Origin: Candidatus Yanofskybacteria bacterium
Lineage (GTDB): Bacteria; Patescibacteriota; Minisyncoccia; 2-02-FULL-40-12; IGHO2-01-FULL-4-A
Assembly (NCBI GenBank): GCA_016185545.1
Contig: JACPNJ010000005.1
Location: forward strand, 271,717 to 335,716
DNA: 64,000 bases
Direction of reading: 5' to 3'
Position numbers and translations under genes: made by a program. Positions 13,030 through 41,480 of this stretch are shown piece after piece. The notes beneath the pieces were generated by a model. The model was given only the letters and a program-made list of their open reading frames with translations, ran no database searches and was not told where the DNA came from. Position 1 is the stretch's first letter. Each line of letters opens with the position of its first letter.

Positions 13030-13737
13030 CTACAGACCGCCGTTTATTAACAGTTGATCTATCAAGCCGGCGAAAACTTGATATGGCTGGGCGCCAACAA
13101 GTTGACGGCCATTGAGAAAAAAGTTGGGCGTGCCGCGAGCGCCTAATCGAGCCGCGTCTTGGCTGTCTTTGGCTATTTCCTGCCGATATTTGCCTGATTC
13201 ATAACAAGAGCTGAATTGTTCCGCATCAAGCCCCAGATCAGAAGCAAATTTTATAAGATTATCTTTTTTAAAAACTCCGACATTATAACCGCGGCGTTCA
13301 GAATAGAGCCGATCATGATATTCCCAATATTTCTCCTGTTCTCCAGCGCATTCTGCCGCTTCAGCGGCATTTTGGGACTCGCGACCGTTGATAGCAAGAT
13401 CACGAAACACAATCTTTAGCTTTCCGGTTTTAACATATTTATCAATTAGAGTTGGCTCCGTCTCATTAAAAAACTTGGTGCAAAAAGTACACTGGTAGTC
13501 GCCGAATTCCACCAAAGTTACCGGGGCATCGGGATTGCCAAGCACGGCATCATTGTCTTCAAGAGATGCTGTATCCGGAACGATTTGCGCGGTTTGCGGC
13601 GGGCGTGGCGCGCTGTTGCCCAAATGATTTCTTTCGGGTTGATTAGTGGCTTTACCGCCAGCCAAAATCAGTATCACTGACAGACCGATAGCGCCCGCTA
13701 TCACGCTTATTGAAATTATCAGGGATTTATTTTTCAT
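13030..13737 (-). CDS. DsbA-family thiol:disulfide oxidoreductase (exported)
   Basis: Thioredoxin-fold CTFC active site; N-terminal TM/signal. Confidence 0.75.
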   Translation of the reverse strand: MKNKSLIISISVIAGAIGLSVILILAGGKATNQPERNHLGNSAPRPPQTAQIVPDTASLEDNDAVLGNPDAPVTLVEFGDYQCTFCTKFFNETEPTLIDKYVKTGKLKIVFRDLAINGRESQNAAEAAECAGEQEKYWEYHDRLYSERRGYNVGVFKKDNLIKFASDLGLDAEQFSSCYESGKYRQEIAKDSQDAARLGARGTPNFFLNGRQLVGAQPYQVFAGLIDQLLINGGL

Positions 13738-13740
13738 AAT

Positions 13741-14508
13741 TTATAAAAATCTATTTATATATTCTTCGTAAAATTGAAATTGCAGCAGCCAACCGCGAAA
13801 TTGGTTAAAAACCGGCGTGAACTGGTTGCTGATAAGAAGAGCGCCGAGCGCGATAAGAAAAATACCGGCGACAACATTGATGACCTTGAGCATTCGTCCC
13901 CACTTGGCAAAAGCCGTAAACGCTTTGCCGATAAGAAGCGCGGTGATCAAAAAAGGTATGGCCAGCCCCAAAGAAAACATCATCAGAAGAAATGTGCCCT
14001 GAGCCACTGTGCCGGATCCAGACGCCAGAAAAAGAATGGAGCCCAACAGCGGTCCGACGCAAGGCGACCAACCAAGAGCAAAAAGCGCGCCGATACCGAA
14101 CGAGTTTGTTTTATTAGATGAAGTAAAAAGCTTAGGCAATCGAATCTGTTTTTCTGCGCTCAACCAGGGTAATTTTAATAATCCCGACAAAAATAGTCCA
14201 AACAGTATTATCAAGATACCGCCGATTCTTTGAAGCCATATCCGGATAACAAAAATTTTGCCCAGAAATGAGAAAGCCACACCGAATAATATAAATACCA
14301 GTGAAAATCCAAGAACATAGAAAACGGCGTTGCCGAATATTTTCCAGCGTAACTGTTTTAGTTTCTCGGGATTGTTCAGCTCTTCTGGCCCGACGCCGGC
14401 AATCACGCCCAAAAACGCCGGCACAAGCGGCAAGGTGCACGGCGCGAAAAAGGTAAATACGCCGGCAACAAATGAAGAAAGTATTAATGCGATACCAAAT
14501 TCTATCAT
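13741..14508 (-). CDS. ccdA: Cytochrome c-type biogenesis protein CcdA / DsbD transmembrane domain
   Basis: Six TM helices with conserved Cys in APCTLPLVP and WSPCVGPLL. Confidence 0.75.
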   Translation of the reverse strand: MIEFGIALILSSFVAGVFTFFAPCTLPLVPAFLGVIAGVGPEELNNPEKLKQLRWKIFGNAVFYVLGFSLVFILFGVAFSFLGKIFVIRIWLQRIGGILIILFGLFLSGLLKLPWLSAEKQIRLPKLFTSSNKTNSFGIGALFALGWSPCVGPLLGSILFLASGSGTVAQGTFLLMMFSLGLAIPFLITALLIGKAFTAFAKWGRMLKVINVVAGIFLIALGALLISNQFTPVFNQFRGWLLQFQFYEEYINRFL

Positions 14509-14511
14509 CGT

Positions 14512-15075
14512 TTATTTGATTATTTTATTTATTTTTTGGATTAACTCTGCCTCTGTAAGCGGCCCCAACTTCATATCTTGTATTACTCCTTCGCGATCAA
14601 TAAACACGCTATGAGGCATCGCAAATCCTCCGTAACGTCCATAGGTAGAGTCGGATTTATCGTTAAGTAAAACAAAGGCATCGGCTAAACCAAGCTGATC
14701 CGTGAATTTTCGGCCGGTTTTTTGATCTTCGCCCCGATTAATCGCCAAAGTAACATATTGATCGCCGGATTGTTTTTGAACACGGGCCATAAGCGGGAGC
14801 TCCTCAACGCAAAACGGACACCATGTCGCCCAAAAATTTATGAACACCGGTTTTTGTCCGCGAAAATCAGACAACCTTACGGTCTTGCCGTTATAATCTT
14901 TTAATTCAAAATCGGGCGCGAGATTGCCGATTCGTGTTCCCACCGTTAGCTCGCCTTGCGGTTCTTTCGCGGTTGAGGGCGTTGAAACTGATGTTTCTTT
15001 GTTGTTGCTGTCCCGTAAAACTAACGCCAAAACCGCCGTGATAATTATTACTATAATTGGAATAATTTTTTTCAT
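14512..15075 (-). CDS. TlpA/ResA-like thiol-disulfide oxidoreductase
   Basis: FWATWCPFCVEELP WCxxC motif; signal anchor. Confidence 0.8.
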   Translation of the reverse strand: MKKIIPIIVIIITAVLALVLRDSNNKETSVSTPSTAKEPQGELTVGTRIGNLAPDFELKDYNGKTVRLSDFRGQKPVFINFWATWCPFCVEELPLMARVQKQSGDQYVTLAINRGEDQKTGRKFTDQLGLADAFVLLNDKSDSTYGRYGGFAMPHSVFIDREGVIQDMKLGPLTEAELIQKINKIIK

Positions 15076-15588
15076 TTACTTATTTTTTAAAAATTTTTCT
15101 AGAGCTTTCTTCTGAATATCCTCGAGATGTATAGATGGCCGTTTCGATTTAATAAGATTCAACGCTTCGTTGGCACTTTTGCCTTGCTTCATAAAATAAG
15201 CCGCCACCAGGGTTGGCGCTCGGCCGTGGCCATTTTTACAATGAATATAAAATTTCATTTTATTCTTTACAAAAAAGTCCATTACTTCCACCCCCAGCTC
15301 CAATTGATTTGGAGTAGGCGCCTGATGATCTTCAACCGGTAGCCAAAGAAAATAGTCAATGCCTATGGGATTATCAATCCGGTTTTTTTCTAAACTTATA
15401 TCACCTAAAACATTTTTTTGAATCAATTCTCTGGCATAGCCGACGATACAGCACATATTTGTGCCGATAAAAATTTCGTCGGTTATTTGATCGTAATCAA
15501 AACTTTTATCGGCGCTAAAATGATGATCGCGTTCGTGAGTTTGAATATCATGCTCGCTTAATTGTTTTTCCAAATCTGACAGCTCCAT
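15076..15588 (-). CDS. Dual-specificity / tyrosine protein phosphatase
   Basis: HCKNGHGRAP = HCx5R P-loop. Confidence 0.75.
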   Translation of the reverse strand: MELSDLEKQLSEHDIQTHERDHHFSADKSFDYDQITDEIFIGTNMCCIVGYARELIQKNVLGDISLEKNRIDNPIGIDYFLWLPVEDHQAPTPNQLELGVEVMDFFVKNKMKFYIHCKNGHGRAPTLVAAYFMKQGKSANEALNLIKSKRPSIHLEDIQKKALEKFLKNK

Positions 15589-15662
15589 GGTTTTATTTAT
15601 TTCGGATATATACCGGCTTCATAATATTCTTGAAATTAACAATCATAAGTTTTTCATATTAC

Positions 15663-16292
15663 TCATCTCGAATGACCTCGCGGAGCATTTATTCTCTCCG
15701 GACCAAGATTTTGGTAACGAGAAATAAAATCTTTAATGCGTTGCTGATCGATGCTGCCGGCTTCAACATTGAATTTATCCAATCGTCCCCAAGCCGCCAG
15801 AGCAATATCAGTGTCATTTTTTGAACGCAAGGTAACTATAATATTTCCGCCGGCAAAATCTTTAAGAATATCAATAACCTCGCTTGATAAGTCTGGTTTA
15901 TAAGTAATCCAAACATGGCCATGTTCTAAATTATGGACTAGTTGCTCGTCGGGCAACTCTCTATCGTAAAATCTTGCCGGAGCCGCAACCGCATAATGAT
16001 CGCCGGATGTCGGTGGATTTGAGTTATAGGAACCCACCATGCCATCAGACACATGGTTCCTTCCTAAAATCGAGATTGCTTGGCTGTAATCCTGCCCTTT
16101 GGGCGTACCGGCACGAACTATTAACCATCCGCCACCAATCACAATCGCTAGACCGATAAGCCAGTAACTAATCTTTTTAAAAACTCTTTTGCGGCGCCCA
16201 CTTGAAATCTCGGCTTCTCTAACGACCTTCTTTTGCCTTTGCCGTTCTTCATATGGCACGTTATTTAATTTTTCAGTATTTTGATCTGACAT
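15663..16292 (-). CDS. DUF3105-like membrane-anchored protein
   Basis: PPTSGDH and LEHGHVW motifs; single TM. Confidence 0.5.
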   Translation of the reverse strand: MSDQNTEKLNNVPYEERQRQKKVVREAEISSGRRKRVFKKISYWLIGLAIVIGGGWLIVRAGTPKGQDYSQAISILGRNHVSDGMVGSYNSNPPTSGDHYAVAAPARFYDRELPDEQLVHNLEHGHVWITYKPDLSSEVIDILKDFAGGNIIVTLRSKNDTDIALAAWGRLDKFNVEAGSIDQQRIKDFISRYQNLGPERINAPRGHSR

Positions 16293-16298
16293 TTTTCT

Positions 16299-16490
16299 CT
16301 AATGACAATCGCAGGAAGGGGTGTTGTCCTGCTTATGGGGCGCGCCGCACGTTGAACAGGTTTTGCTTTCTTCGTGATGTTTTTCGTGCTCACCCATTTC
16401 TTCAACCGGATGGTTATGCTCTTTATGCATTTCGCATGGACACGAACACGCCATGCATTCTTCTGATTTTTGATTATGATTTTGATTCAT
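16299..16490 (-). CDS. Cys/His-rich small metal-binding peptide (metallothionein-like)
   Basis: 63 aa with 8 Cys (CxCxCxC..CxxC..CxC) and 10 His. Confidence 0.4.
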   Translation of the reverse strand: MNQNHNQKSEECMACSCPCEMHKEHNHPVEEMGEHEKHHEESKTCSTCGAPHKQDNTPSCDCH

Positions 16491-16547
16491 ATTTTGATTG
16501 TATAATTGAAGTTATCCAAAACGAGGTTTTGAGATAATCTTAATTAG

Positions 16548-16784
16548 TTATTTAATTCCAAGTAATTGTGAAAGGTGTGATTTGTCAAAACCGACAATGA
16601 TCGTACCATCAACATCAATAATCGGCACCGCCATTTGACCGGATTTTTCCATAGCTTCCTTCGCCGCTTCACGATCTGCCGCTACATTTTTCTCCTCATA
16701 AATAACGTCATGTTCTTTGAAGAAAGCCTTAGCCACCTTGCAATACACGCATGTGGGAGTTGTATATATTGTTACTTTAGCCAT
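16548..16784 (-). CDS. Glutaredoxin / NrdH-like redoxin
   Basis: 78 aa; CVYC active site; thioredoxin fold. Confidence 0.8.
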   Translation of the reverse strand: MAKVTIYTTPTCVYCKVAKAFFKEHDVIYEEKNVAADREAAKEAMEKSGQMAVPIIDVDGTIIVGFDKSHLSQLLGIK

Positions 16785-16815
16785 AGTTTTAGTTTTATTT
16801 ATTTATCGTTTTTTA

Positions 16816-17202
16816 TTAACTAATTAACCTGTAATATCCGCCGGCGGTGAAAAATATCGCCGCGTTAGCCGCCAGTAATATCAAATCAAATTCCCAGCCG
16901 GTTTTATCCATGGCGGCGAAAGGAATTTTCCATTTCATCATCTTCATGCCAATTGCCCCGACCATGACAATTGCCAACAAAACGGCGGCCGCTTGCATAT
17001 AAATCCCCAGAATAAGGCCTAAGCTGGAAAGACTCTCAACTATTCCTAAGAAAAATACGGCAGCTCCGGATACTCCCATCATCTGACCCATCATTTTTGC
17101 CTTCATAAGTTTCGGCAGGCCGTGATAAAGAAAGATTATTGCTACCGCCAATCTCAATATAAACAGACCAAGATTGGCGTTCAGGAAAACCGATGGATCC
17201 AT
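16816..17202 (-). CDS. DoxX-family membrane protein
   Basis: FILRLAVAIIFLYHGLPKL DoxX-type N-terminus; four TM helices. Confidence 0.7.
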   Translation of the reverse strand: MDPSVFLNANLGLFILRLAVAIIFLYHGLPKLMKAKMMGQMMGVSGAAVFFLGIVESLSSLGLILGIYMQAAAVLLAIVMVGAIGMKMMKWKIPFAAMDKTGWEFDLILLAANAAIFFTAGGYYRLIS

Positions 17203-17373
17203 TTTGTTTTATTTTAATTAAGCTGATGATTCTCTGTTTTGCCTGCCCCGTAGGGTCGTGAAGCGACTCCTTCGGGGGTTTTCAACTCAGAAAATACACC
17301 ATTCTTAATTATTAATTGATCTCGCACGAGATCGCGAGGACTCGCCCCGAGTCTCTATCTCGTGTGGGACTGA

Positions 17374-18387
17374 CTATTTGAAAAGCTCGGTTTCGGGATG
17401 AACCGCTAACCAACTAAACCAGAATCCTCCGATATACGGCAACGGTTCGCGGTTAGCGCCTATAAACATTCTAATCTCGCCCTCCGGTTTCTTTTGGATA
17501 AAAATCTGTTCACCGTTAAATATGTCTTTTGTTTCGCCGGCTTTCAGAGCTTTTGAATGATATGCTTTATATTTTCCCTTAATTTGAACCCCCAAAACAA
17601 ATTCTTTTTGGTGTAATCGTTTATCATTAAATGAGGCGCCGAATGAGACATCGTTTGATGTATAGTAATCACCATAAGGGTCATAACCGTATGACCTGAT
17701 AGTTCCGGTGTCTTTGGAAAGAACCGTTGTGTTAGGATGAAGTTTTTTCCAATCCCCGTACCTAATAACATCCGAAGGAATAACTTTTAGTTTGGTACCC
17801 GTAAATTTTCCGACAATAGCTTCTCCCAATACTTGAGACCAAAGTGATTCTTTTTTCTCATCTTCGGTTCGATTATACATTACCAGATTTGATTTCCAAA
17901 GTTTGCCGGAAGTGCCGAATTCCACGACTTGACCTTCCAATTTTCTTTCAAAAACGATACCTGTCAAACAAAGGGGGCAATACGTAATCAATACTGGTTG
18001 GTTGCCAACGGTGTCATTCACAATTTCATGCCAAACCAATATTTGATAGGGATAAAATCGGCAATCATTACCAACACAAAGTCCCGTTCCTGTTTCTTCA
18101 TCTTTCAGAAAATCCGCTTCTTCGGTAGACAAAAATTTAGGATCATCAATTGATGGAATCCCGTCTTTGGGCGGACCGCCTGACAGGATTTCATCTAATG
18201 GCACGGAATGTTTTACCCCATCGGTAATCAGAATTTGTTTTTCGGATGTTTCTAAATCCGAATTATTTGGCATAGTCTCTAAAACTTGGGTATCGCCTTT
18301 GGGTAATTTAAACTGGCGAGATTGGTTATAAAAATAAAATCCGCCAATTCCAAGCATTAACACAAGTATTATAATCCACTTTTTCAT
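17374..18387 (-). CDS. DUF3179-like exported protein
   Basis: GGPPKDGIPSIDDPKF motif and CPLC pair; signal anchor. Confidence 0.5.
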   Translation of the reverse strand: MKKWIIILVLMLGIGGFYFYNQSRQFKLPKGDTQVLETMPNNSDLETSEKQILITDGVKHSVPLDEILSGGPPKDGIPSIDDPKFLSTEEADFLKDEETGTGLCVGNDCRFYPYQILVWHEIVNDTVGNQPVLITYCPLCLTGIVFERKLEGQVVEFGTSGKLWKSNLVMYNRTEDEKKESLWSQVLGEAIVGKFTGTKLKVIPSDVIRYGDWKKLHPNTTVLSKDTGTIRSYGYDPYGDYYTSNDVSFGASFNDKRLHQKEFVLGVQIKGKYKAYHSKALKAGETKDIFNGEQIFIQKKPEGEIRMFIGANREPLPYIGGFWFSWLAVHPETELFK

Positions 18388-18749
18388 TTTACCATTTTTA
18401 TAAGTTTTATTAAATGACTGGTCAGCTTATTTTCCCGATTCAAACAATAACATATTTCTTGACCGTAGCGGCATCCGGAAACAACGCCCAAAAGTTCTAA
18501 CTTCTTTAACTGGTGAGAAACGGCGGATAAAGACGAGTTCGTCATCTCGGATATTCTGCCTACGCACGGCTCTTTTTCGGAAATCAATACCTTAAAAATA
18601 CTTATCCTGGTAGGATCCGATAGGAGGCTAAAAATCTCCGCCGGTTCCAATTGTTTGTATTGTTTAGTCATCCCGTTAGAAGTCCTACGCAATCCAAAAA
18701 TGACTCGTTTATAAGCAGGGCTATTGCTGTTATTTATTCGATATTCCAT
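18384..18749 (-). CDS. ArsR/SmtB-family transcriptional regulator
   Basis: HTH (LSDPTRISIFKVL ... VSHQLKKLELLGVV). 4-nt overlap with the upstream gene. Confidence 0.6.
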   Translation of the reverse strand: MEYRINNSNSPAYKRVIFGLRRTSNGMTKQYKQLEPAEIFSLLSDPTRISIFKVLISEKEPCVGRISEMTNSSLSAVSHQLKKLELLGVVSGCRYGQEICYCLNRENKLTSHLIKLIKMVK

Positions 18750-29637: not shown

Positions 29638-29706
29638 AGTCTTATTTTATCAAATAAAATTCCATAAATCAAAAAGCGGCTTAAGCCGCTTTTTGATTTA
29701 TGGAAT

Positions 29707-31470
29707 TCAATAAGATCCGAGCAAAAATCTTATTATCGCTCCCAGATAAACACTATTCAGCAATGATTGCGGCTGTTCTGTTTCCGGCGGCAAAGGAGGA
29801 GGCACTTGAATTTCTGACGGGATAAACTGACCTTCGCCCGGCTGCGGCGGCAGTGGCAACGACCGGCCTTCAAATTCCAGTGGCTGATTTAATTCTTGGG
29901 GATGCTGATTTTGTTTTTCGGGGAAAGGTTGATTGAAAGGTTGATTGAAATTTTCAGGAAACGGCGGCCTATCCATGGACCTATCTCCTGGCATTGGCGA
30001 AAACTCCGGAGGTATTGGGAACGTTCGTGGCATCAATGGCCTTTCTCCCTGTTCTTCCAACGATTTATTAAAATCGCGACATTTTTCTGGATTTTGCAAA
30101 CATAAATTTTGGCATTCTTTTGGTGAACTGCAGCCTCCTGGACCTCGAAACCCACCTTGCTTACCTGGCGGAAAGCCTTCAGGCGGCATACCTTCTGGCG
30201 GCATATTTTCCGGCGGACCGTTCTCTTCACCCCGTCTATGGTTTATATCCGCCGGGGATTCCATTTCTCTGGGCGGAAATTTATCAAAGCAACTTTTCAT
30301 TTGGTTTCCTATCTGCGGACCAGGCGTTAGCTCTCCGGACTGTATTTTATTTATGATGTTTTCCCCCAATGCTGATTTGAGACAATCTTTTATTTCGGGC
30401 GGAGCATTATTCAAACCTTCCCGCATCCTGCCCATTCCCTCTTTCATTTCATTTATTTGTTCTGCCGGTATTAAGCCGTTTTCTTCGGCAAATTTAAAGC
30501 ATGCTTCCTGATTGGCAGAGTTGTTACAGAATGATTCGCATTCTTCTTTTCCCTTGCAGCCGCCGGGTCCCTTACCACGCGTTTTGCGAGCTATTTCGGC
30601 CTCCTTGCCGTCAATAAATCCGGCCGCTTCGGCAAAATTGGCACATTCATCAAAATGTTCATCGCTTTGGCAATAACTGTCGCACTCCGTTTTTCCTCTG
30701 CAATTTGGCGGTTTTATTCCTTTCTTAATGGCTGAGAGCATTTTTTGAGAATCTTCTTTCTCCTTGTCGTTCATCAACCCGGCTTCTATGGCAAAATTCA
30801 TACAGACCTCCAAATTGTCCGGCTGTTGGCAGTACTGATCGCATGCTTCCTTTCCTCTGCAAGGCGGCGGCTTAACTCCTCTTTTAACGGCTTGCAAAAC
30901 TTTTCGTGATTCCGCAAGTTCCCGGTCATCCATAAAACCGGCCTCTTGGGCAAAGGCAATGCATTCTTCCATGTGGTTTTGGTCTTCGCAATAACTGTCA
31001 CAAGCCTTCTTATTTCCGCAGGACGGAGGTTTAACCCCTCTTTTAATGGCGGCTCTAACCTTTTTTGCCTCTTCCAGTTCCTTAGGAGGCAGAAAATTAT
31101 TTTGTTCCGCGAAAGAAACGCATTCATCTATATTTGAAATATCGTTACAATAAGATTCGCATGAATCTTTCCCTGTGCATCCGCCTGGACCTTTATTGCC
31201 GGCAGCCGTGAATTTTCTTGCCATCTCTATCTCTTCTTTGGGCATCAGATTATTCTCTTCGGCAAAGTTAAGACACGCTTCGGTGTTTTCCGATTTATCA
31301 CAAAAATTGCGGCAATCTGTTTCACTTCTACAATTGCCGAGTTGGAGAATAGGATATTGAATATTGGCAGTACTAGTAGCTGCTGTTTGGGCAAAAACTA
31401 TGCTGATAAAAAACACTGATACTGCAGCAGTTAAGCCCAAAATGGATGTTTTTAAAATTTTATTTATCAT
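29707..31470 (-). CDS. Secreted cysteine-rich tandem-module protein with Pro-rich C-terminal region
   Basis: Signal peptide. ~7 repeats of a ~45-aa four-Cys module (GC.GK..C..YC...N..EC..FA...G...KE.E..RK). P/E/Q-rich tail. Confidence 0.6.
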   Translation of the reverse strand: MINKILKTSILGLTAAVSVFFISIVFAQTAATSTANIQYPILQLGNCRSETDCRNFCDKSENTEACLNFAEENNLMPKEEIEMARKFTAAGNKGPGGCTGKDSCESYCNDISNIDECVSFAEQNNFLPPKELEEAKKVRAAIKRGVKPPSCGNKKACDSYCEDQNHMEECIAFAQEAGFMDDRELAESRKVLQAVKRGVKPPPCRGKEACDQYCQQPDNLEVCMNFAIEAGLMNDKEKEDSQKMLSAIKKGIKPPNCRGKTECDSYCQSDEHFDECANFAEAAGFIDGKEAEIARKTRGKGPGGCKGKEECESFCNNSANQEACFKFAEENGLIPAEQINEMKEGMGRMREGLNNAPPEIKDCLKSALGENIINKIQSGELTPGPQIGNQMKSCFDKFPPREMESPADINHRRGEENGPPENMPPEGMPPEGFPPGKQGGFRGPGGCSSPKECQNLCLQNPEKCRDFNKSLEEQGERPLMPRTFPIPPEFSPMPGDRSMDRPPFPENFNQPFNQPFPEKQNQHPQELNQPLEFEGRSLPLPPQPGEGQFIPSEIQVPPPLPPETEQPQSLLNSVYLGAIIRFLLGSY

Positions 31471-31473
31471 ACA

Positions 31474-31740
31474 TCATTTGAACGGATTGGTTTTTACATT
31501 CTTGAATGGGTTTGTTTGGGACAAGGGGTTGGTATCGGGCTTGTTGCTTAATGGATTTAACTCTGGAAGTTTATCGCCGGGATTTTCCGCTTTCTGGTAA
31601 AGATCGCTGCCAATGCCGCCAGGGGTTGGCGTAACGACCGGCGCGATAACTTGTTGTCGGATTCGTAGCCGCCACAAAAGAACGGCAATTGCCGCAATGA
31701 TTATAATTGCAAAAACATACAATTTTACGCGATCAACCAC
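31474..31740 (-). CDS. Small membrane-anchored protein with NPL/NPF repeats
   Basis: N-terminal TM; C-terminal NPLSNKPDTNPLSQTNPFKNVKTNPFK. Confidence 0.4.
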   Translation of the reverse strand: MVDRVKLYVFAIIIIAAIAVLLWRLRIRQQVIAPVVTPTPGGIGSDLYQKAENPGDKLPELNPLSNKPDTNPLSQTNPFKNVKTNPFK

Positions 31741-31798
31741 ACATTTATTATATTACCTTGTGACTCGGCCGTAAAAACAAAATTGTTGATAACCAATA

Positions 31799-31846
31799 TC
31801 CTCCCTAAATCAAAACGGCCCACTGGGCCGTTTTGATTTAGGGAGG
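31799..31846. terminator. Perfect 23-bp-arm palindromic hairpin
   Basis: tcctccctaaatcaaaacggccc a ctgggccgttttgatttagggagga, directly abutting tRNA-Thr. Confidence 0.4.
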
Positions 31847-31998: not shown

Positions 31999-32262
31999 AT
32001 GACCCAGATAGAAAAAAATTTAATAATAAAAACATCGTCTCACAGAATGCAACATCTTATACGCAGTGGGGCTAGAGTTATAGAATTCCAAAAATTCTTG
32101 GGCGTTCAGGGAGCTCAAATGTACAAAACGACAGTAAGCTGTAACTCACAAGTTTTTTATACTATCCAAGAAAAACCTTTTTCATATATGATCGATGCAG
32201 AGGGTCAATTGTTCACCGCTAATAAATGCGAATGTGCTCAATCTATTTCGTGCCTATTGTAA
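31999..32262 (+). CDS. Hypothetical protein
   Basis: Isolated plus-strand ORF, no motif. Confidence 0.25.
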   Translation: MTQIEKNLIIKTSSHRMQHLIRSGARVIEFQKFLGVQGAQMYKTTVSCNSQVFYTIQEKPFSYMIDAEGQLFTANKCECAQSISCLL

Positions 32263-32333: not shown

Positions 32334-33506
32334 TCAATTTTCCAGCTGAAATATTCCAGCCGCGCCCATACCGCCGCCTATACACATTGTTTCAAGACCG
32401 AATTCCACGCCACGCCGCCGCATTTCGTAAATTAGCGTTGCGGCAATCCGCACACCCGAACATCCTAGCGGATGACCTAGCGCTATTGCTCCACCGTTCA
32501 CGTTGAGACTGCCACGATTAAGGGGAATCTCACGCAATACCGCAAGCGCTTGCACCGCAAATGCTTCATTAAGTTCAATCAAGCCAATTTGACTCAAGTA
32601 AAGCGAAGTCCTCCTTGATACTTCTTTAATCGCAGTCACCGGTCCAACGCCGAAAAGTTCAGGTTGCACACCAATAACTGCGTAATCAATTAGCCGCGCC
32701 AGCGGTTTTACACCGATTTCATTTGCACACTCGCGGGACATAAGCATTACCGCCGCCGCTCCATCGCTCATCTGGGAAGCATTGCCTGCCGTCACGGTTG
32801 AATCAGGGTCTTTATCTTTTTCTATTGGTTCAAGCTTAGCCAGTTTTTCCAAAGAAGTATTGCGCCTCGGTCCCTCATCAAGGTTAACCCAGCCGAGAAG
32901 TGTATTAACCGGTACAATTTCTTCTTTAAATTTTGAGTTATCTTGCGCTCGTACGGCTTTCCGGTGGCTTTCAAACGCAAATTTATCCTGTTCCTGACGC
33001 GAAATCCCGTATTTCTTTCTTAAAACTTCTGCGCCGCCGATGGTTGAGATGTATGCATGCGTTTCATTAAGAAGCACGGGATGGGGTTCAAACTTATTGC
33101 CCATCATAGGCACCATACTCATACTCTCCACGCCCCCGGCGATAATGACTTCAGCTCCTCCGGCTTTGATTCTGTCGGTTCCAAGCGAGATCGCCTGCAG
33201 TCCGGATGAACAGAAACGATTAACGGTCATGCCCGGAATAGTAATCGGTAATCCGGCTAATAGACAGATATTACGGGCAATATTCATGCCTTGCTGGGCT
33301 TCGGGAAAGGCACAGCCAAAAATAACATCATCAATACAAAATGGGTTGAGCTGTGGAACCATTTTCAAAAGATTCCTCACGACAATTGCGCCAAGATCAT
33401 CAGGACGGATTTGGCTTAATGCTCCCCTTATTTTGCCTACCGGCGTACGACATGCCGCCACAATAACCGCATCGTTATCAGACCCGCAAAAACACCTATG
33501 AGACAT
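32334..33506 (-). CDS. Acetyl-CoA C-acetyltransferase (thiolase)
   Basis: VNRFCSSGLQAI active Cys region, NVNGGAIALGHPLGCSG C-terminal signature. Confidence 0.85.
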   Translation of the reverse strand: MSHRCFCGSDNDAVIVAACRTPVGKIRGALSQIRPDDLGAIVVRNLLKMVPQLNPFCIDDVIFGCAFPEAQQGMNIARNICLLAGLPITIPGMTVNRFCSSGLQAISLGTDRIKAGGAEVIIAGGVESMSMVPMMGNKFEPHPVLLNETHAYISTIGGAEVLRKKYGISRQEQDKFAFESHRKAVRAQDNSKFKEEIVPVNTLLGWVNLDEGPRRNTSLEKLAKLEPIEKDKDPDSTVTAGNASQMSDGAAAVMLMSRECANEIGVKPLARLIDYAVIGVQPELFGVGPVTAIKEVSRRTSLYLSQIGLIELNEAFAVQALAVLREIPLNRGSLNVNGGAIALGHPLGCSGVRIAATLIYEMRRRGVEFGLETMCIGGGMGAAGIFQLEN

Positions 33507-37087: not shown

Positions 37088-39766
37088 TTAGTCTAACAAA
37101 ATATCAATCTCCCGGTCAACCGACAAATCAGAATTTAAAATTAAACTGTTGCCGATAGTCTGTAACTCGGCACTTTTGTTTAGCATGCTTTTACCATCAG
37201 GTAACTTGAAACTGAAACCAATCTGATCTTGGCCGGTACCGGATTGTTTCTGCCACAATAGACTATATTTCCCATCAGCAACAGAAGTCGGCGTTTTGTA
37301 TTTTAGTGTAACTGATTTGGTCTGTTTTGGTTTTGTAATCAGCCAAAAACCAAAAACTGTCTTGCCCGATTCCTCAAATACATCCACGCCGGCAAACGGC
37401 TTTTTGATACTGGATTCTATTCGTTCTAGTTCTTGATCACGCTTAAACCCAAAATCCTCATGGTCAATAAGGGGTCTGAAATCGGTTATTGATTGACCCT
37501 GGATACTTTCCAAAACCGATCCCTTGGGAACATAAACTTTAATATACGCCGAGTTGTCACGGTTATAAAACCCGTATTTGGAATCGCCGCCATTATGCAC
37601 CCTATTAACAGTAAGCACATGGTTTAATGTTCCGCCATCACCGATACTGGTTTCCAAATCCATTAGGTTTTCGGTCACAAAATCAGTTTTTGAACCCTTT
37701 ATATTAGAAAACACGACTTGCAGGTAATCTTCAAGTATTTGCTCAATCTCTCCGCCTAATCCGTTTTTAACCGCGACTTTTTCTAAATTAGAGTTTTCGA
37801 AGTATGCCAGAATGTGCTTTTGCTCCGCGGCCTCTGAAATAATTCTAAAAATCGCAAGCCATTGGTCTTTATTCTGTCGGGCAAGTCGTTCAAAAAACTT
37901 AGGCTGGAGGTCGGAAAGTATTTGTTTGGGAGCGGAACGGTTGGCTTCGTACTCAACCTCATTCTGGATTTTTGTCAGAAAATTACCGGCATCAAGCGTT
38001 AAACCGTATTCCGGCATTTCAATCGGACCGATAATATCTAAAATCTTGGCAATAACATCCGGCGTAATTGTAAGCACACCGTCCACTTCCGGCCCTCCGT
38101 CCAATTTGTAAAACTCCGTCACCTTGCGCGCCGAGGTGGGAAAATCGGCAAACCAAGCGGCATCGCGCATTCCCCAGTTTGGCGTGATATGCTGAAGCGG
38201 AATCGGAGGAATGATCTTTTCTTTCAAATTGGCATCAGCTCGGTAAACATCCTCAACAAAAATTTTCTTAAGAGAGCCGTTTTCAAAGGTTATCAGACCA
38301 TATGTGCCGGGAAAACCGCCAGTCGGCCTTAATTCGCTGTTATTTTGAAGCAAAACTAAATAGGTTTTAATGCCATCAGTACCAACAAACTTAAGCAGAA
38401 AGTCCGAATAATCAACCGCTTCGCCTATATATTTTTGAAACTCCGGAATTTTTTCTTTGAAATTCAAAAAAAGCTTTTGTTTATCAGCCGGAATAGCGGA
38501 AGCGTCAATATCGGCAAGCAAACTATCAGCATTTTTTATGTTCTTTTCGGCAAAAACCAAAATATCCTTGAACTCAGTAAGAAGTTTAGACAGTGAAAGA
38601 GATTGCGATGCACCCGAAGGGTCTAAAAATACAAGTAAGTTGGTTTTATAAAGAGTCCCGAATGCCAGCGATAAATTCTCCCCCGCCTTTGATAAATTTT
38701 GGCCCGCTTCAACCAGATTACTCGCCGCCTTGACCTTGTTAAGGCCGGGCAGATTACCGAAAAAAGAAAGAAAAGACGCGCCAAGCTGGCTAAGCGTTCC
38801 GGACGCCCTGTTAAGATCATCGTATGCCAGGGCAAAACTGTCAGCCGCTTTGATAAAATTAAAATTTTCCAGTTCTTGTTTGGCTTTTTCAAAATTCGCC
38901 ACAGCATTACTACCATTTTGAATAATGTTACTACGAGCCCAAATGCTCCGATGCCTGATTACGATACCGATTGATAGACTGGCCACAGCAATAGTTAGCA
39001 CCCAAACCATCGGCCGGCGATTAAATCTGAACCACGATAGCCACTTGGTTCCACTCTTGAAAGGGGTTTTTCTGGATTTTGCGTCTGAAAAACGCTTGCC
39101 ACTTTCAAAGATGGGATTGTGTGATAGCGACTGACGACCTTTCTGCAAATTTTCAAGCCATATTTCTATTTCGCGCGAAGCGGGTGAATGAACTCCATAG
39201 TGAAAATCAGAATGGCCTTCGGCATTACCCGCGTCTGCGACACGGGTAGCTTCAATTTCTACTGCGGGGAAAGTAAACTTGGTAAGTTCGGCGACCGGTT
39301 CGGCAGGTAATGTGCTGGGAAATAGTTCGGTCCCGGCGTTTTTTTCGGTTATCTTCCTACGATAAGCAATTTTAGATCTGGACTTTGTATTAAAAACCTC
39401 ATAAACGCGGCCACCAACGCGAGTTAATTCAACCGCAGCATCAATCGGTTCTGAAATAGTTTTTTCAAACTCCTCTAATATCGATTCTTTGCTGAATGCT
39501 GTTAATTCATATTTTTGAGAAAAGTCTGGACGTTGGGGCAATTTAACTATTAACTCTTCCCAATAGTCGTCATCTGACAGGGTTTCGGGTTTTTCAATAG
39601 TTGTTTTTGGTTTGCCAAGCCTTAGTTTAGGTTTATCCAAACTGGGGCTGGATTTATTCTCCCGCCGTAAATCAAGTTCGTTTTTAATTTGTTCCAAAAC
39701 TAAAGCTGCCGACTTACCTATCGGTCTGACATCAAACATCGCCAACAAGATATTTCTCTTTGGCAT
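37088..39766 (-). CDS. Large membrane protein with ~620-aa extracytoplasmic domain (DUF4012-like?)
   Basis: Single TM near aa 250; located in an envelope glycosylation cluster. Confidence 0.45.
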   Translation of the reverse strand: MPKRNILLAMFDVRPIGKSAALVLEQIKNELDLRRENKSSPSLDKPKLRLGKPKTTIEKPETLSDDDYWEELIVKLPQRPDFSQKYELTAFSKESILEEFEKTISEPIDAAVELTRVGGRVYEVFNTKSRSKIAYRRKITEKNAGTELFPSTLPAEPVAELTKFTFPAVEIEATRVADAGNAEGHSDFHYGVHSPASREIEIWLENLQKGRQSLSHNPIFESGKRFSDAKSRKTPFKSGTKWLSWFRFNRRPMVWVLTIAVASLSIGIVIRHRSIWARSNIIQNGSNAVANFEKAKQELENFNFIKAADSFALAYDDLNRASGTLSQLGASFLSFFGNLPGLNKVKAASNLVEAGQNLSKAGENLSLAFGTLYKTNLLVFLDPSGASQSLSLSKLLTEFKDILVFAEKNIKNADSLLADIDASAIPADKQKLFLNFKEKIPEFQKYIGEAVDYSDFLLKFVGTDGIKTYLVLLQNNSELRPTGGFPGTYGLITFENGSLKKIFVEDVYRADANLKEKIIPPIPLQHITPNWGMRDAAWFADFPTSARKVTEFYKLDGGPEVDGVLTITPDVIAKILDIIGPIEMPEYGLTLDAGNFLTKIQNEVEYEANRSAPKQILSDLQPKFFERLARQNKDQWLAIFRIISEAAEQKHILAYFENSNLEKVAVKNGLGGEIEQILEDYLQVVFSNIKGSKTDFVTENLMDLETSIGDGGTLNHVLTVNRVHNGGDSKYGFYNRDNSAYIKVYVPKGSVLESIQGQSITDFRPLIDHEDFGFKRDQELERIESSIKKPFAGVDVFEESGKTVFGFWLITKPKQTKSVTLKYKTPTSVADGKYSLLWQKQSGTGQDQIGFSFKLPDGKSMLNKSAELQTIGNSLILNSDLSVDREIDILLD

Positions 39767-39883
39767 CTTATTTAATTATACAATGAATCTCACTTTGCTA
39801 GCTGTGGATTGCCGCTCCACCGTTTCAAAAATAAAAGCCCCGATTGGGGCTCTGAAAAAAAGGGCGGTTTCGGTTTCAACGCG

Positions 39884-40414
39884 CTACTGATTCCTGTATG
39901 AGCCAACGAACATAGCTGCGCCCGCTCCAACCTTGTTTCCTCTCAAATCAATGTCGAAACGATTTGCCGCCATTTGTACGGCCATATAGGTACGGCCTAA
40001 TTCAATTGCAAGTTCGTGGATGCTCATGGATTTGCCATGTTGCTCTAGAAATTCAATTTCCTTTATTGTCCATCGCTGCCAGTGGTTTTTGGCTAAAGGC
40101 CGGGTTATATTCTGATGAAAATCTAAAATCTTTTTTCTTTCTTTGCTCTTTATTTCCGGATTCTTTTTGAGCCATTCTCGGCGTCTTTCGGGATATTTTT
40201 GGCGGAATTTAGAAATAGAAGCGCTTAAACAGCTCGGATGTCTTAAATCCATAGCAATATTGGCGACATACTGGTAAGAAGACCGGATTCGCTCTGCTAT
40301 TTCTTTATAGTTAAGTCCTTCTTTTAAAAGAGCCGCGATTTGCTGCCTTTTTGTCACAATTTCACCTCCGAAGCTCAATAGCCAAACACACCATACAGTA
40401 TCATTCATTAGCAA
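39884..40414 (-). CDS. Putative HTH DNA-binding protein
   Basis: Two helix-turn-helix-like segments; overlaps the GT4 start by 14 nt. Confidence 0.35.
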   Translation of the reverse strand: MLMNDTVWCVWLLSFGGEIVTKRQQIAALLKEGLNYKEIAERIRSSYQYVANIAMDLRHPSCLSASISKFRQKYPERRREWLKKNPEIKSKERKKILDFHQNITRPLAKNHWQRWTIKEIEFLEQHGKSMSIHELAIELGRTYMAVQMAANRFDIDLRGNKVGAGAAMFVGSYRNQ

Positions 40415-41480
40415 TCATGTCAACTATCTTGGTTTTGAAAATCGTTTTATCAAACTCAAGGGCGTGGGTGCGGATGGCGGCAGAATCCCATTGGGTCTGA
40501 TAGTATTGGCCTACTGCTTGGGCAAGAGCAATCTCGGTTTGTTCGTCAAAGAATATACCGGTTTTATTTTCTAAAATAGTTTCCAATGCTCCGCCGCCGT
40601 GATAGGCAATTACTGGCCGTCCGGAAGCCATTGATTCAAGCGGGACAATGCCGAAATCCTCTTCTTGCGGAAAAATCACTGCCTGCGCATGGGCATAAAG
40701 TTCCGGCATTTTGTAATCCGAAACCAAACCAAGGAAACTTATATTCGGCTTAGCCATTTTCTCCAACCGCTTGCGTTCCGGGCCATCACCGACAATTTTA
40801 AGGGGTTTCCCTATGGCATTGAATACCTTGACTGCCAAGTCAAAACGTTTATATGGCACTAGCCGACCAACCATTAAAAAATAATCTCCGGCTTCGTTAC
40901 TTATATAATATTTATGAGCATCAACCGGCGGATAGATGACTTCGGCATCGCGATTATAATATTTTTTGACTCTGGATTTCACAAAATTTGATATCGCCAT
41001 GAACTTGTCAACCCGCAATGCCGCCTCTTGGTCCCAAATACGAAGATAGGTTATGAAAAACGGCACAAGTTTTCTAATCGGCCAGGGATGGTTGAATTCT
41101 TCAATATAACGATGGCTATCATCCCAAAGAAATCTTGTCGGGGTCAGACAATAATTAATGTGTTTGGCATACGGTTTGGTTATGATGCCCTTGGCAAAAG
41201 ATGCCGATACCGACAAAACGATGTCATAATACGACAAATCAAACTGTTCAACCGCAAACGGCATAAGAAGTGAAAAAACACGGTGGTATTTGCGCGCGAA
41301 AGGAAGTTTTTGCAAAAAAGAGGTGTGTATCTCGCGGTTACAAAAAACACCGCCGGTCATACGCTCATCATAAAGCAAGGTATAAATCGGGGCATCTGGA
41401 AAAATCTCGCACAAAACCTCCAGCACTCTTTCTGCTCCCCCATACTGATTAAGATAATCATGAACCAAAGCAATTTTCAT
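40401..41480 (-). CDS. Glycosyltransferase family 4 (GT-B fold)
   Basis: N-terminal MKIALVHDYL...GGAERV and C-terminal E-x7-E type motif. Confidence 0.8.
   Translation of the reverse strand: MKIALVHDYLNQYGGAERVLEVLCEIFPDAPIYTLLYDERMTGGVFCNREIHTSFLQKLPFARKYHRVFSLLMPFAVEQFDLSYYDIVLSVSASFAKGIITKPYAKHINYCLTPTRFLWDDSHRYIEEFNHPWPIRKLVPFFITYLRIWDQEAALRVDKFMAISNFVKSRVKKYYNRDAEVIYPPVDAHKYYISNEAGDYFLMVGRLVPYKRFDLAVKVFNAIGKPLKIVGDGPERKRLEKMAKPNISFLGLVSDYKMPELYAHAQAVIFPQEEDFGIVPLESMASGRPVIAYHGGGALETILENKTGIFFDEQTEIALAQAVGQYYQTQWDSAAIRTHALEFDKTIFKTKIVDMIANE

Follow-up and report, generated by a model that had tools for sequence, protein, structure and literature searches.

What is encoded between positions 29707 and 31740 of a 64,000-nt stretch of Candidatus Yanofskybacteria DNA, and what could an exported protein built from tandem cysteine modules do for such a cell? 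The stretch, referred to here as the window, comprises positions 271,717 to 335,716 of contig JACPNJ010000005.1 (GenBank assembly GCA_016185545.1). An initial annotation, made from the sequence alone, described the interval as one large secreted protein and proposed it as a candidate adhesin or host attachment factor of an episymbiotic-type bacterium. The Patescibacteria host of this DNA bears out the last point; the interval itself proved to hold two genes instead of one, and this gene pair looks like an undescribed, lineage-specific component of the cell envelope. The Parcubacteria/Paceibacteria, tiny bacteria that depend on hosts, make up a vast group with almost no cultivated members, and their surface biology is largely obscure.

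Results

A gene pair encodes an exported cysteine-module protein and a small membrane protein

Listing and translating the open reading frames (ORFs) resolved the interval into two minus-strand genes. The large gene (29707..31470) encodes a 587-aa exported cysteine-module protein, as judged from its ORF, its cysteine map, and its identity (100%) to a database entry, NCBI [quoted passage not shown] The small gene (31474..31740), recognized by its ORF and by homologs in related loci, starts with GTG and encodes an 88-aa bitopic membrane protein. A small transmembrane (TM) protein with an NPL/NPF tail had been placed downstream of the large gene; it is indeed adjacent, but with both genes on the minus strand it lies upstream, and its stop codon is separated from the large-gene ATG by 3 nt.

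The large protein begins as the initial annotation anticipated, with a signal peptide. Its N-terminus (MINKILK, a hydrophobic core, and predicted cleavage between VFA and QT) reads as a Sec-type signal of residues 1 to 27 (31390..31470, minus strand) and lacks a twin-arginine (RR) motif. By a simple n-region/h-region heuristic, a comparable N-terminus is present in 234 of 248 family members, and an RR-like pattern, as in a twin-arginine translocation (Tat) signal, occurs in only 4 of the 248. The signal is followed by an N-terminal cap motif, NIQYPILQLG (31336..31365, minus strand; family form NIQYPxxxLG), in which Y39, P40, and L44 are invariant or nearly so.

An array of six four-cysteine, three-helix modules (30403..31335, minus strand), delimited by cysteine spacing, conservation, and AlphaFold2 modeling, comes next. 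The modules are 48 to 53 residues long, lie in order at 31183-31335, 31024-31182, 30865-31023, 30706-30864, 30562-30705, and 30403-30561 of the minus strand, and each of their four-cysteine motifs is followed by a K/R-rich helix. All six have exactly the spacing C-x5-C-x3-C-x8-C, with cysteines at 47/53/57/66, 98/104/108/117, and 151/157/161/170 in modules 1 to 3 and at 204/210/214/223, 257/263/267/276, and 305/311/315/324 in modules 4 to 6. The fourth gap had been given as x9-10; it is x8 in every complete module and x6 in a truncated unit farther along the chain. The earlier count of about seven modules needs a similar revision, since the tandem arrangement and the basic helix after each module stand but the protein contains six complete modules, one truncated one, and a two-cysteine cap. 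The latter is a helical domain (30271..30402, minus strand; helices 358-368, 370-378, and 385-397) with conserved C363 and C394 and a predicted local distance difference test (pLDDT) score of ~90 to 97. In total, the large protein has 30 cysteines. A relaxed version of the module motif occurs 7 times in the large ORF versus once in the remaining six-frame translation of the window, so the pattern is far beyond chance.

The array is widespread in one lineage and conserved module by module

A word-indexed protein search recovered 1,677 relatives of the large protein. Searching 1.84 billion cluster representatives with a one-module profile returned 1,675 proteins at E ≤ 0.001 (867 of them at E ≤ 1e-30), with 5 to 13 module hits each and lengths of 362 to 1555 residues. 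At least 197 species-representative genomes carry a relative, a lower bound because that scan depends on exact pattern seeds. Hosts with names include Yanofsky-, Jorgensen-, Nealson-, Staskawicz-, Azam-, Gribaldo-, Taylor-, Nomura-, Harrison-, Kaiser-, and Magasanikbacteria; the remainder have generic Patescibacteria/Parcubacteria labels, apart from a few doubtful assembly labels. The gene pair has so far been found only in Parcubacteria/Paceibacteria-type Patescibacteria. Several "binchicken" assemblies labeled "uncultured Candidatus Saccharibacteria" or "Gammaproteobacteria" also carry the cassette (L007, L014, L018, L061, L072, and others). One of them, L007, encodes a Yanofskybacteria-type small protein together with a large protein of 65% identity, and the taxon labels of these records are probably wrong.

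The cysteine pattern, whose conservation the initial annotation had left to be checked, proved to be strictly kept: none of the 24 module cysteines varies among 107 homologs, and many charged residues, e.g., E184, K190, E221, and E275, are likewise invariant. Modules at the same position in different lineages share a median of 59 to 71% identity, whereas different modules share 27 to 47%. Judged by these identities, the modules are positionally orthologous, each having its own conserved identity across lineages. Since Tandem Repeats Finder detected no ~159-nt period across the modules at the DNA level and inter-module identity is only 27 to 47%, the array is old rather than the product of a recent repeat expansion.

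These observations bear on the proposed role in host attachment, by which the array or the region beyond it would bind a host surface molecule and the proline-rich region would serve as a stalk. The protein is extracytoplasmic and comes from an episymbiont lineage, and relatives within the Yanofskybacteria attach to Methanothrix (PMC10936435). The same study, however, does not name the cysteine-module family among its highly expressed secreted candidates, and the array shows no repeat instability in its DNA and is strongly conserved, module by module, across candidate lineages with presumably different hosts. Because the cysteines are invariant and conservation is module specific, a conserved partner or a housekeeping envelope role fits better than a fast-evolving adhesin. 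Attachment is not established by these data and, for the array itself, is somewhat disfavored.

The modules are predicted to form one body and resemble no described family

AlphaFold2, run with an alignment of the 107 homologs, modeled residues ~40 to 400 with pLDDT values of >90; the predicted template modeling (pTM) score was 0.58, with about one-third of the chain disordered. Two modules modeled alone reached a pLDDT of 88.9 and a pTM of 0.75. The predicted fold is all alpha, with three helices in every module: a short helix 1 that bears C2 and C3, with C1 just ahead of it; a helix 2 that bears C4 and an invariant F-A; and a longer, K/R-rich helix 3. Given the high pLDDT and a pTM of 0.58 despite the disordered third, we infer a single defined body in which the cap packs together with the six modules, rather than beads on a string.

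The module had been described as unlike any recognized family, and the searches agree. Neither protein had a significant match in Pfam or NCBIfam, and no family recurred when 36 family members were scanned against Pfam at E values of up to 0.1. Searches of all PDB sequences with phmmer and two profiles gave no match, and no enzyme-like or known domain emerged from the Pfam, NCBIfam, or PDB sequence searches. When models were compared to the PDB with Foldseek, the best E values were 0.9 for the whole protein and 3.8 for the two-module model, neither of which is significant; the weak matches were generic alpha-solenoids (TPR, PPR, SLR, and HEAT). A full-text literature search found no description of the cysteine-module family, and the database names of relatives of the large protein are all "hypothetical" or "proline-rich domain-containing." The repeat module is without a sequence or PDB structure relative among described families. 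Compositional Pfam hits that fell below the cutoff were rejected for both the large protein (AtDEF-like, ADAM10 Cys-rich, and Nodulin_late) and the small protein (TPR_21, SpoIIIAH, and PilO).

Variant modules favor disulfides over metal binding

The module cysteines could pair as disulfides or coordinate metal. In 269 family proteins, all four cysteines are kept in 1,986 of 2,049 module instances, and the cysteine count is even in 69 of the 77 complete ORFs of relatives. Some relatives also contain self-contained units of the form GPGGC-x5-C-(Q)(K/N)F that keep only C1 and C2, lie more than 25 residues from any other cysteine, and stand alone in disordered regions; the total number of cysteines in the proteins that carry them stays even. 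One otherwise complete module lacks exactly C3 and C4. Because of the lone two-cysteine units and the module without C3 and C4, disulfides between C1 and C2 and between C3 and C4 fit better than a four-ligand metal site.

An extracytoplasmic protein that binds or stores metal, with the module cysteines holding a metal ion or cluster (e.g., Zn, Cu(I), or Fe) in place of disulfides, would explain the four invariant cysteines per module and their geometry, in which C-x3-C occupies one helix face and a further cysteine sits on the next helix. Conserved acidic and histidine residues lie near the cysteines (CD.YC and HMEEC), and copper storage proteins likewise array cysteines on helices. Half a metal site, however, is not what the mini-units and the degenerate module with only C1 and C2 would suggest. 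The signal is of the Sec rather than the Tat type, the genome encodes an extracytoplasmic DsbA-like oxidase, the conserved neighborhood has no link to a metal transporter, and no known metal-binding family was matched. Overall, we regard metal binding as quite improbable; from the two-cysteine variants and Sec export, disulfide stapling is a plausible and better reading.

The oxidase belongs to a set of membrane-anchored DsbA-like (CTFC), CcdA, and TlpA-like (CPFC) proteins encoded at 13030-15075. Together with the two-cysteine variants, these genes make the disulfide stabilization proposed in the initial annotation plausible. The suggested association with a nearby Dsb system did not hold up, as the Dsb-like genes are ~16 kb from the cysteine-module gene and are not syntenic with it in other genomes. 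[quoted passage not shown] The genes at 13030-15075 are part of a longer minus-strand run (13030-18749) that encodes the DsbA-like protein (CTFC), CcdA/DsbD_TM, the TlpA-like redoxin (CPFC), a dual-specificity phosphatase, DUF3105, DoxX, DUF3179 (CPLC), and an ArsR-type regulator, and this run may represent an extracytoplasmic thiol-redox island.

The small gene accompanies the large gene throughout the family

Of 85 related loci, 83 have a homologous small gene directly 5' of the large gene; in the remaining two, the sequence breaks off upstream. Even two very divergent relatives, the lectin-bearing P0265 and the 1555-aa P0291, have the small gene directly upstream. The gap from the small-gene stop to the large-gene ATG is 0 to 11 nt in most related loci. 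When flanking ORFs were clustered, the large gene was found in 85 of 85 loci and the small gene in 82, while any other gene cluster reached at most 6; the two genes are each other's sole conserved neighbors. Linkage to the Dsb genes or to the adjoining ftsEX, prfB, and divIC genes was rejected, since neither is conserved in other genomes. The small gene is an obligate, apparently translationally coupled partner of the large gene. Strict gene pairing with tight start-stop spacing is the usual signature of proteins that work together, mostly as a complex, and on this basis we infer that the two products act together, probably as a complex. An adhesin would leave this obligate partner without an explanation.

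Searches detected 363 members of the small-protein family, each a stand-alone protein of ~85 to 105 aa annotated as hypothetical. A hydrophobicity scan predicts a TM helix at residues 7 to 23, LYVFAIIIIAAIAVLLW (31672..31722, minus strand), and across the family the hydrophobic segment starts near residue 6 with a median hydrophobicity of 2.75 over 19 residues. An alignment of 32 diverse sequences revealed a conserved NP-repeat C-terminal tail, LPELNPLSNKPDTNPLSQTNPFKNVKTNPFK (31477..31569, minus strand), in which P72, N77, P78, N85, P86, and F87 are invariant. The tail always ends 0 to 2 residues past the last NPF. The small proteins of the 83 loci all have the N-terminal TM helix and share the tail form ...NPLENKPDxNPxxxxNPFKxIKTNPF(E/K). 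JGI names some homologs of the small protein (P0148, P0188, P0212, and P0220) "flagellar basal body-associated protein FliL." This name looks like an annotation artifact and was set aside: the proteins are ~90 aa long, combine a single TM helix with the NP tail, and have only weak Pfam hits of the TM or coiled-coil type.

The C-terminal region is variable and may face outward

Past the cap, the large protein becomes largely disordered, and the P/E/Q-rich low-complexity region noted earlier is readily confirmed: the C-terminal third is rich in P, E, G, and Q, with 35 prolines in 135 residues. It comprises a first Pro/Gly/Glu-rich spacer (30148..30270; pLDDT <50); the truncated seventh module, GPGGC-x5-C-x3-C-x6-C, at residues 447 to 464, with two helices in the AlphaFold2 model (30052..30147); a second disordered region of ~95 residues, rich in Pro, Gln, and Glu and unalignable between relatives (29770..30051); and a short hydrophobic to amphipathic C-terminal helix, QSLLNSVYLGAIIRFLLGSY (29710..29769), predicted with low confidence at residues 574 to 586. 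All four lie on the minus strand. Each disordered stretch contains an in-frame micro-repeat, one of 12 nt × 2.3 encoding NQPF (29923-29950, in the second region) and one of 15 nt × 2.7 encoding MPPEG (30176-30216, in the first spacer); these are possible sites of spacer length variation.

Across the family, the C-terminal half is variable and unalignable and includes 1 to 5 extra mini-modules of the truncated type. Some relatives (P0265 and P0316) have a C-terminal Laminin_G_3 lectin domain and an additional N-terminal domain, P0291 has a ~1000-residue Cys/Thr/Pro-rich extension, and one relative has a Kazal-like segment. P0265 and P0316 (see also locus L086, 3001-6189) represent a sub-branch of the family; their additional N-terminal domain, ahead of the module array, is ~190 residues long with the motif ...GLFTLT(M/I)..PQGI(Q/K)EFSL.P... 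and has no Pfam match. Of 269 relatives, counting fragments, 167 have a hydrophobic stretch in their last 18 residues, preceded by a proline-rich one; the hydrophobic moment has a median of 0.45, and the C-terminal hydrophobic helix is kept even in lectin-bearing relatives.

This part of the protein also bears on host attachment. The C-terminal half is highly variable, the lectin domain of some relatives could have a surface binding role, and the proline-rich stalk and C-terminal hydrophobic segment resemble those of Gram-positive surface proteins. Weighed against the conservation of the array and the strict gene pairing, an adhesin nonetheless appears unlikely, although attachment would be compatible with a scaffold if the variable C-terminal part alone bound the host.

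The same features bear on whether the protein is secreted or shed as a soluble factor (e.g., as an inhibitor, as an effector resembling a toxin, or as a substrate of thiol-disulfide exchange), with the small protein helping only in its export or maturation. Small disulfide-rich helical units are common among secreted inhibitors and toxins, one relative has the Kazal-like segment, and there were weak compositional matches to defensin-like and ADAM Cys-rich models. Those matches, however, were below curated cutoffs and did not recur, effectors are rarely so conserved, and the confidently predicted rigid array and the long spacer, together with the conserved hydrophobic helix at the C-terminus, speak for tethering. 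We consider such a soluble factor very improbable.

A proposed disulfide-stapled scaffold that would dock the small-protein tail

The reading that we favor makes the pair a structural platform of the envelope, used for docking, and not an enzyme. Specifically, the large protein would serve as an extracytoplasmic scaffold, stapled by disulfides and held at the membrane, and its conserved array would dock a conserved partner, for which the small-protein tail is the probable candidate. We hold this reading as credible, if somewhat short of probable. After export, two disulfides per module (C1-C2 with C3-C4 is the likeliest pairing) would staple small helical units without a large hydrophobic core, yielding a stiff scaffold outside the membrane that would resist proteases and stress. 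The scaffold could be tethered by its own short hydrophobic C-terminal helix past the long proline-rich spacer, by the TM helix of the small protein, or by both. By analogy with TPR and ARM solenoids, which bind extended peptides, the strongest candidate for a ligand of the conserved charged surface of the array is the invariant NP-x-x...NPF tail carried by the small protein. The variable C-terminal region (mini-modules, lectin, and Cys/Thr/Pro-rich extensions) would be the lineage-specific, outward-facing part.

Several observations weigh against this scaffold. The C1-C2/C3-C4 pairing, although most likely, is read from variant patterns only. The small-protein tail could be cytoplasmic: under the positive-inside rule, the charges around the TM helix (mean K+R of 3.15 on the N side versus 2.93 on the C side) do not fix its orientation. 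Module count and NP-motif count do not correlate (r = -0.10), and no natural fusion of the small-protein tail to the large protein was found. Finally, the C-terminal helix of the large protein itself has a moment of 0.27, which makes it hydrophobic rather than clearly amphipathic, and is of low confidence.

A bolder version of the scaffold model is possible but doubtful. In it, the modules would represent a new repeat fold of three helices stapled by disulfides and would build a rigid solenoid; this solenoid would bind the NP-repeat tail of the small protein, as a dedicated membrane anchor, to form a previously undescribed Parcubacteria-specific envelope complex with lineage-variable outward parts (such as lectins or proline-rich fibrils). 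If this is true, the complex would be a core surface apparatus for envelope organization or host contact in ultrasmall episymbionts.

The gene pair resembles a discrete transcription unit

A sigma-70-like promoter match, TTTACG-17-TATAAT (31747..31775, minus strand), lies just upstream of the small gene; it agrees with the consensus at 10 of 12 positions and is a consensus match only. Its -10 element (TATAAT) ends 6 nt ahead of the small-gene GTG. A transcript from this promoter, if the promoter is real, would have little or no leader and would begin with GUG. Directly 3' of the large gene is a long palindromic terminator-like hairpin (29661..29704, minus strand) with a 20-bp stem and then a T run, and ~35 of 78 related loci have a comparable long hairpin past the large gene. 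A second long hairpin, seen in the sequence after tRNA-Thr (31800-31846), lies on the upstream side of the pair. With its promoter-like site and flanking hairpins, the gene pair in the window resembles a discrete transcription unit.

The two bracketing hairpins have common arms, AAATCAAAA...TTTTGATTT; the window contains no further site of this kind, and chance alone would be expected to give none. We considered whether repeats bracket a mobile cassette here and rejected this, as related loci usually show nothing upstream and, downstream, just a long palindromic terminator of the ordinary kind. For this reason, we treat both hairpins as (bidirectional) terminators.

Two further features of the window deserve mention. 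A complete thiolase (acetyl-coenzyme A acetyltransferase-like) gene, unusual for a metabolically reduced Patescibacteria genome, lies just upstream of tRNA-Thr (32334-33506), and the 290 nt between them contain only an unannotated 87-aa plus-strand ORF (31999-32262). At 37088-41480, a large DUF4012 protein (892 aa) adjoins a helix-turn-helix protein and a group-1 glycosyltransferase; this may be a surface polysaccharide locus, unrelated to the cysteine-module gene pair.

Discussion

The gene pair is kept together across its whole family, is strongly constrained, and is confidently predicted, which makes it a concrete and tractable target: both the array and the tail peptide could be made recombinantly. 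If the scaffold model is true, the known helical repeat folds would gain a new, disulfide-stapled member, and a lineage-specific envelope complex would be defined that could be used as a marker or handle, for instance for antibodies or labeling. If it is false, the pair would be one among many conserved hypothetical families of the CPR.

Several known systems share features with the large protein. At the C-terminal end, its layout of a signal peptide, a folded N-terminal region, a proline-rich spacer, and a C-terminal hydrophobic segment recalls Gram-positive LPXTG surface proteins and anchors of the Escherichia coli PBP5/6 type. It differs from them in having no LPXTG-like motif (LP.TG) anywhere in the protein and no basic tail after its C-terminus (...RFLLGSY); the hydrophobic segment is ~14 to 17 residues long, and anchoring by it is presumed.

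In their cysteine chemistry, the modules can be compared to two further groups. Copper storage proteins (Csp1 and Csp3) are likewise helical and display many cysteines on helices. They are four-helix bundles with a cysteine-lined core, and Csp1 is exported by Tat, whereas the large protein combines a Sec signal with discrete four-cysteine modules and variant patterns that favor disulfides. Twin CX3C/CX9C (CHCH) domains are also small helical two-disulfide units with C-x3-C on one helix. CHCH domains, however, occur singly, in the mitochondrial intermembrane space, as helix-turn-helix units whose disulfides are nested, whereas the modules have the spacing C-x5-C-x3-C-x8-C, occur in tandem and in a bacterium, and would pair their cysteines sequentially (C1-C2 and C3-C4).

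In overall fold type, the predicted structure is similar to the TPR, ARM, and PPR alpha-solenoids, and the best nonsignificant Foldseek matches were the LGN TPR, a designed PPR, RapH/NprR, and NlpI. Foldseek against the PDB gave no significant structural match to a solved member of the TPR or ARM families, and the cysteine-module protein differs in being extracytoplasmic and stapled by cysteines and in its repeat length and helix count. The Helicobacter cysteine-rich/Sel1-like repeat (SLR; PF08238) proteins share with it export, tandem alpha-helical repeats, and an elongated array stapled by cysteines. SLR units consist of ~36 to 44 residues and have two helices and one disulfide. The cysteine modules, at 48 to 53 residues with three helices and four cysteines, fall outside this repeat pattern. 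The SLR protein LpnE was a weak Foldseek match (rank 21; E value of 6.5, not significant), and there was no Sel1 Pfam match in the large protein (E values of up to 1) or in the 36 family members (E values of up to 0.1). With its Sec signal and an even number of conserved cysteines in repeated units, the large protein fits the generic class of disulfide-rich extracytoplasmic repeat proteins. It belongs to a known kind, the exported, cysteine-stapled helical repeat proteins, and brings to that kind a module that matches no described family.

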